Below are positions 1 to 60,788 of a stretch of 64,000 nucleotides of DNA, in pieces (the first letter of the stretch is position 1; each line of letters starts with the position of its first letter). Origin of the DNA: an uncultured Clostridia bacterium (GTDB lineage Bacteria > Bacillota > Clostridia > Oscillospirales > Oscillospiraceae); NCBI GenBank assembly GCA_937967235.1, contig CALCJW010000192.1:4533-68532 (forward strand). The letters are read 5' to 3'. A program made the translations under genes and the position numbers. The notes under the pieces were generated by a model. It saw only the letters and a program-made list of their open reading frames with translations. It searched no databases and had not been told where the DNA came from.

Positions 1-1305
1 CATCGCGCAAATGCGGCCCAGCGCCTGCTGCACCGGGATGCGCTCCTGCGGGGCAAACACTGCCTGCCGGATGGTACAATGGGCCCGCGCCTGCTGTGCC
101 AGTGCCACGAATTCCCCAGCCAGCTCTTCCGGCTGCAGGAGCCCACCCGCTGCGGGCAGGCCGTGCAGACACTGCCGGAGCACCGTGCGCAGGCGCGCAT
201 AGTCCTGCGGTGGGTTGCAGGGGGTGAACATCAGCACCACATAACGCGGGTCGGCATATTCACACTCGAGCTGCCCGCCGCGCAAGGCATCCGCCAGCGC
301 GGTGCCGGTCATGCCAAGGGCCGCAGCGTCCAGCGTCAGCTTCAGCGGTTCCCGGCCCGGGCCGTCCAATGCCAGCGGCACCGGGCAGCCCGCCGCCTGC
401 GCCGCCGCGTTCAGCTCCCCGCGCAGAGCGGCAAGCCGGGCACAGCACCGCTGCAGCCCCACAGGGTAGGTTTCTGCCAATACCCGGTTGCAGGCATCCA
501 GCGACTGCAGGATCAGGTAGGACGGGCTGGTGGAGCCGAACAGGGCCAGTGCACCGCGCACTGCAGCTTCCTCCTGCACCGGGGCGTTCTCCCCCAGATG
601 CAGATATGCTCCGCCGGTGACCACCGGCAGGGTCTTGTGGGCCGAATCGCAGCACATGGCAGCCCCCAGTGCGATGGGGTGCAGCGACTCTCCGGGCAGA
701 AAGCGCAGGTAGGCCCCGTGGGCGTTGTCCACCAGCAGCGGCATCCCAAAGGTGTCGCACACAGCCGACAAGGCCCGGATGTCCTGCATTCCGCCCAGAT
801 AATCCGGGCTGGTGACGTAGACCCCAAAGGGGGTACTCCCTTGCCCGGTCAGCTCCTGCAGCGCTGTTGTCAGCATCTGTGCGGAGATGGGGCAGCTGCA
901 CAGCGCCCCGGCATTCTCTGCCGCAGGCCAGAGCCACCGGATGTCGAAGTCCAGCAGCGCGGCAGCGTACAGCAGGGCTTTGTGCGCGTTGCGGGCCGCC
1001 AGCAGTACCGGACGTTTTCCAGTGCGGGGTGCTGCCTGCAGTGCCAGACACAGCATGGCCCGGATGCACTGGGACGAGCCCTCGGTGCTGTAATAGGTGT
1101 GCTGTGTGCCGAACAGCCGGGTAGCGTTTGCTTCGCTTTGGGCAATGATGCCTTCCGGCTCGTACAGCTCGTCGGCGCCCCGGATCTCGGTCAGGTCCAG
1201 CGGCTCAAAGCCTAACAGGCTCTGGCCCTTGTGGCCGGGCATGTGCAGGCGGGAGGTGCCGGACTGTGCATAGCCGCGCACAAAATCCACGATGGGTGTG
1301 TCCAT
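1..1305 (-). CDS. Orn/Lys/Arg decarboxylase-fold PLP-dependent enzyme (3' end truncated by the window edge)
   Basis: Manual reverse translation from the ATG at 1305 gives MDTPIVDFVRGYAQSGTSRLHMPGHKG; the HMPGHKG motif is typical of the OKR decarboxylase major domain. This frame is missing from the ORF track because it runs off the window. The plus-strand ORFs here are antisense artefacts. Confidence 0.7.
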   Translation of the reverse strand, partial: MDTPIVDFVRGYAQSGTSRLHMPGHKGQSLLGFEPLDLTEIRGADELYEPEGIIAQSEANATRLFGTQHTYYSTEGSSQCIRAMLCLALQAAPRTGKRPVLLAARNAHKALLYAAALLDFDIRWLWPAAENAGALCSCPISAQMLTTALQELTGQGSTPFGVYVTSPDYLGGMQDIRALSAVCDTFGMPLLVDNAHGAYLRFLPGESLHPIALGAAMCCDSAHKTLPVVTGGAYLHLGENAPVQEEAAVRGALALFGSTSPSYLILQSLDACNRVLAETYPVGLQRCCARLAALRGELNAAAQAAGCPVPLALDGPGREPLKLTLDAAALGMTGTALADALRGGQLECEYADPRYVVLMFTPCNPPQDYARLRTVLRQCLHGLPAAGGLLQPEELAGEFVALAQQARAHCTIRQAVFAPQERIPVQQALGRICAM

Positions 1306-45374: not shown

Positions 45375-45553
45375 TTCTTTTCCTCCGTACCCTCCAGATC
45401 AGGGGCCTTACATAACCCGCATTTGGCAGGGTCGTTCTTGCAACTGTTGTAGCAGCCCCGCCGACGAAACCCGCAGTCGGAACAGCAGACGCTCTTCCGA
45501 CGCCGATCGCAGTAAAAGATCGTGCAGACGCGGGGCTTATTCTCACTCGGCAT
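45371..45553 (-). CDS. small Cys-rich protein
   Basis: Ten Cys in 60 aa. Confidence 0.35.
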   Translation of the reverse strand: MPSENKPRVCTIFYCDRRRKSVCCSDCGFRRRGCYNSCKNDPAKCGLCKAPDLEGTEEKK

Positions 45554-45917
45554 TTGGGCCTCCGTTCTCCGGCACGATCTTCCTCAGCGTGAGTGTGACC
45601 TCGCTGCCGTCGCCGGTCACCCACTTGTACTCCATGCTGTCCACGCCGTCGATTTCCCGGATTGCCAGGAAATAGTCGCGGACAGCCTCGACCGCCTCAG
45701 TTGTAACGCGATCTCTGTCTTTCCATTCGCCCTTGCTGTTGGTGATGCCGGCATAAATGCCGCCAATCCCAGCACTCACATGAAACCCAGGCATTTTGAC
45801 GTCCTCCTCCGCCCAGCTCGACGCCTCCAGGCAGTCGATTACAAACCAGACCAGCAAGCCGCAGATTACAGCAGCAGCCACCGGCACAACAATTTTGAAA
45901 AAGATGGTCTCGATCAT
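45543..45917 (-). CDS. small membrane protein
   Basis: Start MIETIFFKIVVPVAAAVICGLLVWFV. Confidence 0.4.
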   Translation of the reverse strand: MIETIFFKIVVPVAAAVICGLLVWFVIDCLEASSWAEEDVKMPGFHVSAGIGGIYAGITNSKGEWKDRDRVTTEAVEAVRDYFLAIREIDGVDSMEYKWVTGDGSEVTLTLRKIVPENGGPNAE

Positions 45918-45933
45918 GTTCCGCCTTTCTTTG

Positions 45934-46495
45934 TCACTCCGGCGGCAGCTCGTCGCCCCAAGCGTCCCATCCAGTCGCTCGCTGCCTCGCAAAAAGCTCG
46001 ATTCTGGGTACGTCGCCCATCAAGGTTACGATGCGCTTCCGAACCTCGTCCGGCTTTACGCTGTGCGCCTGTATCGGTTCCTCGACAATTTGATGCACGG
46101 CATGGCTCTTGATCTGCTCTTTTGCCTTGAAGTCTGGTGTGATACCGAGCAGGCAAACCTCCGCGTTGGCGCGGGTATATGCTCCCATGCCCCAAAACGG
46201 GGTACCGCTCTTGCGGTTTTTCTTCACCCAGACGAAAGCTGCCGTCTTGTACTCGAACCCCCATGCCCGCATCACGCGTAGCGCATCCGGGATAGTCGGG
46301 AAGGTTGCCCACATAAACAAGGCGCAGCCCCCCCCCCGCAAGCCTCTGAACCGGAAGTGCGCAGATGTCCTCAACCGCCATCGTGTGATAGTGCTGCACC
46401 GCGTTCCCGCGGCTCTTCGGGCCCGTCCCGCACTGGCGGTACGACCACGGCGGGTCAGCATAGATAACGGAATAGGTCTTGTCAGGAAGATTCAT
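45934..46495 (-). pseudogene. MT-A70 family N6-adenine DNA methyltransferase, frameshifted at a C10 (coding-strand G10) tract; phase-variable or assembly error
   Basis: N-terminus MNLPDKTYSVIYADPPWSY...HYHTMAVEDICALPVQRLAGGG is in one frame. The rest, ALFMWATFPTIPDALRVMRAWGFEY...ARQRATGWDAWGDE, is in the -1 frame. The junction falls exactly on the homopolymer at 46328..46337. Confidence 0.7.
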
Positions 46496-46781
46496 CTTCG
46501 GCTCCCTTCATGCAGCCTTCGCGCTTTTCGCCGCGGGACCGCGCATCGGCTTCCGCAAGGGTTTCGATGTCGAACGAATCAAGCCCGCCGTGCTGGACGA
46601 TCGCATTCAGGAGTTTTACCTCCTTCGCCAATTCAAGCAGCGTTCTTTTACCCGTCATTGACTTTGTTGCCCCATACAGAAGGTTGTTCAGAGAGATTAT
46701 CTCCTCGCCGGTCAGTATGACCACTGCAAAGCCGTTCTCATTTTTTGCGTCGTCACGATGGACGAGTGAATGTATTCTCAC
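46482..46781 (-). CDS. hypothetical protein
   Basis: 99-aa ORF. Confidence 0.35.
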   Translation of the reverse strand: MRIHSLVHRDDAKNENGFAVVILTGEEIISLNNLLYGATKSMTGKRTLLELAKEVKLLNAIVQHGGLDSFDIETLAEADARSRGEKREGCMKGAEDESS

Positions 46782-47329
46782 TGTTTCCTCTCCTCCTCCC
46801 GAATAATTTCGAGATCGTAACCGCTCGCCACGAACCGAAGGCAGAGGTCGTGCTGGATGCCGTTGCCCAGGTAGGTGTAGATCAGCTCCATGTCGTCCCG
46901 CGTGAACTTCGTGTCCAACAGCTTGTTGATGCCGTCCAGGTGTTCATCCTGGAGCTTGCAAGAGCGCCCCTTGAACGCGTTCCGGGAACAGTCCTCCAGG
47001 ACAGCCGCCTTGAAGTCCTGCTCGTCGCGTACCTGATTCAGCATAATGTACGTGTTGGCCTTCGGGATCAGAATGAGCTCGTTGTACATATTGACGAATG
47101 CTGCCGGGAAAGCTGCCCGGATTTTCCGGGCCCAGGGAGCGGCGAGCGCGTCGAACCTGTCGTCCAGCACATCCTCTTTGGCCTCCGTACTGCCGATCGT
47201 CGGGGCCTGCAAGACCATTGCCATGATCTTGGAAACGATGATGCCGGGCGGCTGTTTGAGCATCGAGCTCGCCTCGGCCGCAATTTGCTCGTAGAGGACA
47301 ACTGCGTCGATCGGTCTTTCCTCAACCAT
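46778..47329 (-). CDS. hypothetical phage protein
   Basis: 183-aa ORF. Confidence 0.45.
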   Translation of the reverse strand: MVEERPIDAVVLYEQIAAEASSMLKQPPGIIVSKIMAMVLQAPTIGSTEAKEDVLDDRFDALAAPWARKIRAAFPAAFVNMYNELILIPKANTYIMLNQVRDEQDFKAAVLEDCSRNAFKGRSCKLQDEHLDGINKLLDTKFTRDDMELIYTYLGNGIQHDLCLRFVASGYDLEIIREEERKQ

Positions 47330-59307: not shown

Positions 59308-59542
59308 TCAGTCCTCCTTGTTCTGTGCGTTCTGCTCGATCTGGAGCAGTTCATTGTAAATCCGGTTGGCTTCCTCGCTGGTCAGGTTGTACTGCTCGAT
59401 CAGGTCGGGAAGATCGCGGGCCCGCCAGCCGCCCTCGTACAGGGGGGGGCGCGGAATACTGGGTGTCGTACTCCTCCTGGCCGCCGCAGCGGAGATCATC
59501 GCGCCAGCTCTCGTAATCGGCCTCCGTCATGATCATCATCAT
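59308..59542 (-). pseudogene. small early gene split by a frameshift at a G8 (coding-strand C8) tract
   Basis: MMMIMTEADYESWRDDLRCGGQEEYDTQYSAPPP is in one frame, then PLYEGGWRARDLPDLIEQYNLTSEEANRIYNELLQIEQNAQNKED is in the -1 frame. The junction is at the homopolymer at 59452..59459. Confidence 0.4.
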
Positions 59543-59545
59543 GGC

Positions 59546-60389: not shown

Positions 60390-60788
60390 ATGACTATCTG
60401 TGAACGGCTCTTTGAAGAGCTAAAGCTCCGCGGGTTTACCGCGTACAGCCTGTCAAAAAGCATCGGAGTCAGCACTGCCACAATATCGAATTGGAAGCAG
60501 CGAAACACCGACCCGCCATCCAAGTGCATAATCCCAATTTGTGAATTTCTGGGATGTTCGATCGAATATTTGTTGACAGGTGAGGACACCGGGGCCCCTG
60601 TGGTCATAAAAAAAGAGCCCGTCCCCGGAATATCCGAGAACGGGCGCGAAATGCTGGCCTTGTATGAAAAGCTGTCAGAACGCGATCAGCTGCTCTTGCT
60701 GGGCCGTCTGCAAGAAATGGCCTCCCCCATGCTGGGCGACTCCAGGGAAAAGAACCAGAAGGACGACGCACGCAGCGCGGCAGGCTGA
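60390..60788 (+). CDS. CI-like XRE-family repressor
   Basis: N-terminal HTH LKLRGFTAYSLSKSIGVSTATISNWKQ. Divergent from the early operon. Confidence 0.7.
   Translation: MTICERLFEELKLRGFTAYSLSKSIGVSTATISNWKQRNTDPPSKCIIPICEFLGCSIEYLLTGEDTGAPVVIKKEPVPGISENGREMLALYEKLSERDQLLLLGRLQEMASPMLGDSREKNQKDDARSAAG

Follow-up and report, generated by a model that had tools for sequence, protein, structure and literature searches.

The 64,000-nucleotide (nt) stretch analyzed here (assembly GCA_937967235.1 of an uncultured Clostridia bacterium, contig CALCJW010000192.1, positions 4,533 to 68,532; hereafter, the window) is a prophage carrying an MT-A70 family N6-adenine DNA methyltransferase gene that is broken at a run of 10 G residues. 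The gene starts with an ATG at 46495, preceded by a GGGAG ribosome-binding site, and ends with a TGA at 45936..45934. Its N-terminus reads MNLPDKTYSVIYADPPW and then enters the uninterrupted G10, leaving the 56 N-terminal and 129 C-terminal codons 1 nt out of register. The parts of the gene, including the 193-amino-acid (aa) open reading frame (ORF) that most gene callers report, are as follows.

45934..46495, minus strand: MT-A70 family N6-adenine DNA methyltransferase gene, at present out of frame (OFF); assigned from its frames, their repair, and matches to PF05063, phrog_359, and PDB chains
46328..46337, minus strand: poly-G tract "site A", G10 on the coding strand and C10 on the plus strand, encoding a Gly run before the strand ALFMWA
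46338..46495, minus strand: N-terminal segment in the frame of the start codon, with the catalytic DPPW at 46456..46445
45934..46327, minus strand: C-terminal segment CALFMWATFP...WDAWGDELPPE, offset by 1 nt from the N-terminal segment and lying in the frame of a 175-aa ORF
45914..46495, minus strand: 193-aa ORF that begins at the true start when the tract is G10, with 56 native residues followed by 137 wrong-frame codons at 45914..46327 that run past the native stop

A preliminary description of this DNA had placed the split at 46328..46337 with the halves 1 nt apart; sequence, frames, and PF05063 agree with it throughout. It had also expected tracts of 9 or 12 to restore an enzyme of ∼190 aa, and in silico editing gave single, intact ORFs of 186 aa (G9) and 187 aa (G12). 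The repaired G9 protein matched the Pfam MT-A70 model (PF05063) over positions 1 to 172 of 172 with 85.5 bits (cutoff, 23.9), phrog_359 "DNA methyltransferase" (E value, 6e−75), and the solved MT-A70 structures 7f4r (E value, 1e−14) and METTL3 (E value, 4e−7) in the PDB. DPPW occupies residues 14 to 17; across 61 aligned homologues D14, P15, and W17 were invariant, and P16 was conserved in at least 90%. The wrong-frame part of the 193-aa ORF was considered as a dual-coding product and rejected, as the relatives L007 and L026 reach stops in it after 25 to 28 codons. Its 137 open codons, also found in the G7 and G13 states, are probably due to chance in G+C-rich DNA.

Comparison of tract length across strains and metagenomes, as proposed in the preliminary description, revealed that it differs between copies of the same phage. 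Ten near-identical copies were found via an exactly conserved 183-aa protein encoded just upstream of the methyltransferase (46778..47329), the exact sequence of which is present in 195 blocks of public assemblies; the contigs that hold them are 50 to 120 kb long and differ in sample and source. Public sequencing runs with the phage include SRR7750072, SRR21969528, and ERR14000985. The copies are at least 98% identical, share the same gene order and tract flanks, and, tract aside, show zero indels across 8.5 kb. Their tracts read G11, G10, G9, G9, G10, G10, G10, G13, G10, and G7. Four copies that are at least 99.85% identical (9 to 13 substitutions apart) have four different tract lengths, while the sole 100% identical pair are both G10. 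The tract changes at least as often as the whole 8.5-kb flank gains a handful of substitutions. Given that length differs between otherwise near-identical phage copies, the tract appears to be a real mutational ON/OFF switch.

To place these lengths among public assemblies, the exact sequence of the window-allele product predicted for each tract length was looked up, with the following results.

G9: 186 aa, ON, 53 contigs
G12: 187 aa, ON, 34 contigs
G15: 188 aa, ON, 1 contig
G10: 193 aa, OFF, 63 contigs
G7: 192 aa, OFF, 6 contigs
G13: 194 aa, OFF, 4 contigs

ON products of the window allele were thus found on 88 contigs in total, and G10 was its commonest state, so that the window carries the commonest OFF form. 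C-terminal fragment products of 128, 126, and 112 aa were found on 89, 13, and 33 contigs, respectively; as such fragments cannot be assigned to the G8/11/14 frame, the ON fraction of the window allele is only bounded, at roughly 30 to 55%. Four fragment-product loci were fetched, of which three were G10. The fourth, L184, is a window-allele copy with an interrupted run of 11 nt at about 581..591 (GGGGGAGGGGG) that is out of frame, either a locked-OFF allele or an assembly error. A metagenome pattern scan with the exact tract flanks identified one locus (L091), carrying G10.

One reading of the frameshift is that it is a sequencing or assembly artifact and that the true sequence here is G9 with the gene intact. 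Runs of at least 10 G are error-prone, a single extra base suffices for the frameshift, and some contigs break or carry N at the tract: IMG/VR contigs L146, L154, L156, and L174 end there, and L163 has an N beside it. Contig breaks at a poly-G run may be expected where reads from one sample support more than one length or where their quality declines. However, the G10 product is the commonest one, on 63 contigs from NCBI, ENA, and Logan, and the 8.5 kb compared among the ten copies hold no other indel. The lengths observed (G7, G9, G12, G13, and G15) include states at least 3 nt apart, with many contigs each, mostly from short-read assemblies, and are therefore not plus-or-minus-one homopolymer errors; G9 and G12 alone, 3 nt apart, are each found on dozens of contigs. 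Even were the window call wrong, the locus would be hypermutable. Assembly error, which the preliminary description had put forward as the alternative, does not account for these data, and an artifact in the window is improbable. In two further loci, L162 and L177, unrelated sequence lies upstream of the tract.

Relatives of the gene were surveyed in 160 loci, 80 from species-representative genomes and 80 from IMG/VR, with the frame class of each set by the frames of the DPPW and WGFxY motifs. Site A holds G7 to G14 in 62 loci, at the same codon position before ALFMWATFP, in alleles whose identity to the window protein ranges from 55 to 98%. Genes were disrupted in 41 of the 59 full-length loci with an uninterrupted site-A tract (G7 or longer) but in only 2 of the 71 without a tract (Fisher P = 3e−17). 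All 41 break at the tract, and three of them (L026, L135, and L136) have a second lesion elsewhere. The three reading frames were occupied 20:19:20 among the 59 tract-bearing genes. The closest clade that seemingly lacks a tract has interrupted tracts (GGGGGGTGGA, GGGAGGGGGA, and GGGGAGGGGG), every one of which is in frame; judged from their sequences, these are predicted to be locked-ON alleles, which are typical of contingency-gene families. More distant relatives carry Asp-Asp or Glu-Asp at site A rather than Gly. A second clade (52 to 62% identity) has no site-A tract and instead carries G7 to G10 at a "site B", at nt about 452 to 462, before RIELFAR; three of its six loci are in frame there and three out of frame. 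The tract-bearing genome loci were mostly from gut Clostridia (Oscillospiraceae, Faecalibacterium, and metagenome-assembled genomes labeled "Clostridiales"); one of them, L007 from the isolate Faecalibacterium tardum CLA-AA-H175, carries G11. A BLASTN search against an annotated phage collection gave just two weak, unannotated matches.

The ratio of nonsynonymous to synonymous substitution rates (dN/dS) was compared among tract-bearing alleles on either side of the tract. The median was 0.066 for residues 2 to 48, upstream of it, and 0.040 for residues 64 to 181, which are translated only in the ON state; the values were unchanged when only alleles that are currently OFF were compared, and no tract-bearing allele has an internal stop in the proper frame. 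Such long-term purifying selection indicates that the ON state is regularly used. Although tract-bearing alleles have diverged to synonymous saturation (dS above 1), their Gly codons at the tract still end in G, and GGG makes up only 8% of Gly codons in the window prophage. As GGG is rare and distant relatives have no Gly at this position, the pure G run is not explained by protein need or codon bias. In an AlphaFold2 model of an ON allele (predicted local distance difference test score, 80.7; predicted template modeling score, 0.81), the site-A Gly run lies in a loop between helix 49-52 and strand 59-64, and for this reason three, four, or five Gly residues should all be tolerated. Site B lies likewise in a loop of the model, between helix 150-160 and strand 165-168.

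These data also bear on whether the gene is a decaying pseudogene, that is, a dead methyltransferase with a drifting tract, as the preliminary description had allowed. About two thirds of the tract-bearing copies are out of frame, spread evenly over the frames, and the second lesion in three relatives would fit decay. A dN/dS of 0.04 after the tract, even among OFF alleles, and the lack of internal stops contradict it, as do the 88 contigs with ON alleles of the window allele alone. Decay would also leave the pure G run, kept despite saturated synonymous divergence and the rarity of GGG, and its recurrence at one site across alleles of 55 to 98% identity, without explanation. A pseudogene is therefore scarcely credible.

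The G10 could be a designed length from which full-length enzyme is made by programmed recoding, through +1 ribosomal frameshifting or transcriptional slippage. For the window allele, the modal length is G10. A run of G residues lets tRNA-Gly re-pair in the +1 frame, and some leaky read-through on G10 is possible. Recoding sites, however, hold a fixed length, whereas here the frames are occupied 20:19:20 and in-frame lengths are common. The ON length is particular to each allele family and is flanked by OFF states, both shorter and longer, and alleles with an interrupted, non-slippery run are in frame. The tract showed no stimulatory element; the only structures there were two short terminator-like matches made up of the G run and the GC-rich sequence that follows. 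With no conserved fixed length, programmed recoding is very unlikely as the designed mechanism.

The distribution of homopolymers over the phage genomes was determined from a census of runs of at least 8 G or C in 66 relatives with the MT-A70 tract, covering 443 kb.

MT-A70 gene: 37.6 kb, 63 runs
Other DNA methyltransferase genes: 57 kb, 37 runs
Everything else: 348 kb, 6 runs

All 106 runs are G on the coding strand, and 100 of them lie in DNA methyltransferase genes of four families. Run density was 0.65 per kb in the other methyltransferase genes and 0.017 per kb in other DNA, a 38-fold difference (binomial P = 8e−26). The runs in methyltransferase genes other than MT-A70 are divided among three kinds of enzyme.

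C5-cytosine methylase, 643 aa: PF00145 (E value, 4e−32), up to three tracts, 29 runs in all
phrog_757 "DNA methyltransferase", roughly 216 aa: no Pfam hit, 6 runs
N6_N4 methylases: PF01555, 2 runs

In related phages the C5 methylase gene sits just upstream of the MT-A70 gene, as in L171 (15..1946, with tracts at 123, 1475, and 1556), and a poly-G C5 methylase is also present in L168, L170, L172, L175, L181, L105, L142, L169, and L111. Near-identical loci differ in the length of the tract at a given position (some 1443 nt before the MT-A70 start, for example, it ranges from G8 to G11), and in many copies the C5 gene shifts frame at its tracts. Tracts in the phrog_757 and N6_N4 genes were found in L104 (1647), L161 (2126), L176, L164, and L163 (about 569), and L004 (8588); L135 (5567); and L012 (623). 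In the window phage, the MT-A70 gene alone carries a tract.

The six runs outside methyltransferase genes are in L004 (5581 and 7800), L009 (643), L162 (5989), and L002 (1642 and 3168), within genes for a PemK/MazF-like toxin, a PAPS-reductase-like protein (phrog_424), a weakly sigma-70-like protein, and ORFs of unknown function. Among protein families, the "unknown function" phrog_10837 (from residue 61; 61 to 182) and phrog_16888 (156 to 181) match the window MT-A70 protein only after the poly-G sites, and phrog_27471 matches the C-terminal half of the phrog_757 enzyme, after its tract. All three look like families built from split gene calls in phage genomes already deposited in the databases.

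The census is relevant to a neutral mutational hot spot, in which the run would be real and variable but of no adaptive value, the enzyme mostly dispensable, and the tract kept by descent. An even frame distribution is what such a hot spot would give, and one common origin could account for site A across its clade. It does not predict the tract that a separate clade carries independently at site B, nor the 38-fold concentration of G runs of at least 8 in three other, unrelated methyltransferase families of the same phages. Synonymous interruption of the run is also easy and does occur, as the locked alleles demonstrate, yet the pure run is kept in 62 loci. Neutrality is accordingly held to be improbable, to much the same degree as a sequencing artifact. 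Confinement of poly-G to four unrelated methyltransferase families, together with the independent second site in MT-A70, suggests that methylation switchability itself is selected.

For contingency loci, an uninterrupted repeat within an ORF is expected, long enough to slip, which for G or C means at least 7 to 8 nt. The window gene has an uninterrupted G10 within its ORF, its length polymorphism toggles the frame, and the gene is otherwise intact and under purifying selection. Thus, it is quite probable that the G10 run is a genuine simple-sequence contingency locus in a functional, orphan, phage-borne MT-A70 N6-adenine DNA methyltransferase. The slipped-strand ON/OFF switch envisaged in the preliminary description is upheld by lengths of G7 to G15 among near-identical phages, by the frequency of both ON and OFF states, and by the locked in-frame alleles and purifying selection.

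Several observations weigh on the other side. All of the tract-length evidence is a comparison between assemblies, and fast, reversible switching within one lineage is inferred from it. Illumina consensus at 10 or more G residues may be off by one, and single calls, including the G10 of the window, may be wrong. G10 is the longest homopolymer in the window (57.6% G+C), where the next G/C runs are G8, then C6 and G5, but a run of at least 10 G arises in 11 of 100 dinucleotide-preserving shuffles of the window and is statistically unremarkable there; with window-only statistics this weak, the case rests on comparison with other sequences. The even 20:19:20 occupancy of the frames shows that ON is not selected for in the state sampled, which is mostly prophage, as a neutral hot spot would likewise predict. 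Finally, the second lesions are a 1-nt deletion outside a homopolymer (L135 and L136, at about 3460) and an A6-to-A5 change (L026, at about 6440), so that some copies do decay.

How a switch of this kind could serve the phage was considered from the position of the gene. The long ORFs from about 7.8 to 59.3 kb of the window are on the minus strand, and the features that frame the methyltransferase gene are as follows.

60390..60788, plus strand: CI-like repressor (HTH_3/Phage_CI_repr), the equivalent 132-aa gene of which carries PF07022/PF01381 in copies L092 to L101
46482..46781, minus strand: upstream 99-aa ORF, present among the gene calls of all ten copies, whose end shares 14 nt with the start of the methyltransferase gene
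45543..45917, minus strand: downstream 124-aa ORF, beginning 17 nt after the methyltransferase stop

The position of the lysogeny switch is indicated by the CI-like repressor, which precedes the methyltransferase by about 14 kb along lytic transcription. Upstream of the gene are also an SbcC-like ATPase, a DnaD-like helicase loader (Pfam DnaB_2), and small ORFs, and downstream are small ORFs, a DUF5131 protein, and a 3D-domain protein. No res or hsd gene that could supply a restriction or specificity partner was identified among these neighbors, and the methyltransferase gene is hence an orphan. A promoter and terminator scan around it yielded a small number of weak consensus matches that did not clearly exceed what shuffled sequence gave, and no separate transcription unit. 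The gene would therefore be co-transcribed with the lytic-direction replication and early genes after induction. Because it lies in the lytic block, overlaps the ORF upstream, has no clear promoter, and is about 14 kb from the repressor, it is expected to be silent in lysogeny. Even frame occupancy suggests that the phase is invisible to selection in the sampled, mostly integrated prophages, which fits a gene silent in the lysogen.

The preliminary description had called the locus phasevarion-type. In a phage-borne phasevarion, the enzyme would be expressed in the lysogen, methylate the chromosome when ON, and so switch a set of host genes. Methyltransferases switched by simple sequence repeats (SSRs) act in this way in pathogens (PMC5909438, PMC4889913), and, in PMC13076061, which cites Ulrich 2025, the prophage methyltransferase PamA is described as altering host gene expression in Staphylococcus aureus. 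The switch itself is supported by the ten copies and the product look-ups. Nevertheless, the gene is in a minus-strand lytic block, overlaps the ORF upstream, lacks a clear promoter, and is about 14 kb from the CI-like repressor, and the even frames in prophage samples look as if its state were invisible to selection in the lysogen. It also lies outside any Type I/III (or IIG) restriction-modification system of the bacterium. The label is not supported as given for an orphan gene without a res or hsd partner in this position, and a phage-borne phasevarion is considered unlikely, if less so than the other alternatives.

A contingency locus acting on the phage itself could operate as follows. 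Slipped-strand mispairing during DNA replication would add or remove G residues. With 9, 12, or 15 G, the DPPW N-terminus and the rest of the fold would share a reading frame and a surface loop would hold 3 to 5 Gly (ON), and at other lengths the enzyme would be truncated or mistranslated (OFF). Switching would be fast and reversible within one lineage. When ON, the enzyme would be predicted to methylate DNA, so that methylation of phage DNA could vary stochastically as a bet-hedge between hosts: the mark may be demanded by the restriction-modification systems of some hosts, and punished in others by methylation-dependent defenses or by a cost of methylating the lysogen. Location in the lytic-direction replication and early block, together with the restriction of poly-G almost only to methyltransferases in the relatives, makes such a bet-hedge the most likely role, although for this part of the proposal the chances appear about even.

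Among known systems, the closest in mechanism are phasevarions, in which SSRs switch Type III mod genes, as well as Type I hsdM/hsdS, in Haemophilus, Neisseria, Helicobacter, Moraxella, and Actinobacillus (PMC5909438, PMC7383803, PMC6902483). The locus described here likewise has a simple repeat within an N6-adenine methyltransferase ORF, shifts frame with repeat length, and has ON and OFF alleles coexisting in a species. Phasevarions, however, belong to the chromosomal restriction-modification genes of host-adapted, mostly Gram-negative pathogens and have demonstrated regulons, whereas the present enzyme is an orphan MT-A70 protein in the lytic-direction block of a temperate phage of gut Clostridia. 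In Campylobacter jejuni, cj0031 encodes a Type IIG enzyme with a poly-G tract (PMC4889913); there too a G homopolymer in the coding region toggles methylation ON and OFF (as predicted here), but the cj0031 enzyme belongs to the bacterium itself, fuses restriction and methylation, and comes from another methyltransferase family.

Phages also carry hypermutable homopolymers that serve as bet-hedging devices. Campylobacter Fletchervirus phages have poly-G in receptor-binding protein genes (Sorensen et al. 2021 Cell Rep, as related in PMC12823448 and bioRxiv 10.1101/2025.10.21.683753), and contingency loci are described in T2/T4 (bioRxiv 10.1101/2025.10.21.683753). In those lytic phages the targets are host-range or other genes, in contrast to the DNA methyltransferases of temperate phages of Gram-positive gut anaerobes described here. 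The nearest precedent is Bordetella phage BPP-1, for which a poly-G tract in a methylase gene is mentioned only, and not studied, in bioRxiv 10.1101/2025.10.21.683753; as given there, it is one anecdotal sighting, unaccompanied by population data, and the phage is proteobacterial. Stand-alone adenine methyltransferases of phages and prophages that counter restriction or act on the host include hin1523/hia5/nma1821 (PMC3299994), M.EcoGII (PMC5778455), which is silent in its prophage, and PamA (PMC13076061). The window enzyme resembles them in being an orphan, but none of them is reported to be switched by a repeat tract. Literature searches, including the phase-variation and epigenetics reviews PMC11868660 and PMC13076061, identified no description of repeat-switched methyltransferases on gut Firmicutes phages.

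Phase-variable methyltransferases have so far been studied almost only as the chromosomal restriction-modification genes of pathogens, and phage contingency loci are just gaining recognition, mainly in receptor-binding genes. Here, the same device is found on the orphan methyltransferase of a very common human-gut prophage, as judged from the 195 assembly blocks with its neighbor gene, and its relatives carry it in methyltransferases of four unrelated families. Should the switch prove adaptive, the methylation state of a gut phage would be a stochastic, heritable, and rapidly reversible trait, split methyltransferase gene calls would be biology rather than error, and metagenomic matching of phages to hosts by methylation motif would have to allow for ON and OFF states. 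The locus also offers a directly testable system for the trade-off that phages face between restriction-modification and methylation-dependent defenses.

More broadly, temperate phages of the dominant gut Clostridia (Oscillospiraceae and Faecalibacterium relatives) could run a hypermutable "methylation switchboard". Poly-G tracts placed almost only in methyltransferases (MT-A70, C5-cytosine, phrog_757-type, and N6_N4), sometimes several per gene, would yield progeny with varied combinations of marks, a combinatorial bet-hedge against restriction-modification and methylation-dependent defenses that might also produce epigenetic heterogeneity in lysogens. This wider proposal is tentative, and its likelihood is placed slightly below even.

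The second homopolymer of the window, a G8 run at 59442..59449 on the plus strand that reads as C8 in the coding direction, breaks the frame of an early 77-aa ORF on the minus strand at about 59545..59310. Such a frameshift elsewhere in the prophage had been noted previously as a reason for caution over sequence quality; its existence is confirmed, but not its value as a sign of poor sequencing, as the allele recurs in the independent assembly L092. Exact look-ups of the products expected from other lengths of the C8 allele found none. Nine of the ten near-identical phage copies have GCGGCCTCCCTG at this position and an intact 77-aa ORF, while the window and L092 share GCGCCCCCCCCTG, which differs from the other copies by two substitutions and one extra C. 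The C8 allele is a reproducible derived allele rather than random sequencing noise.

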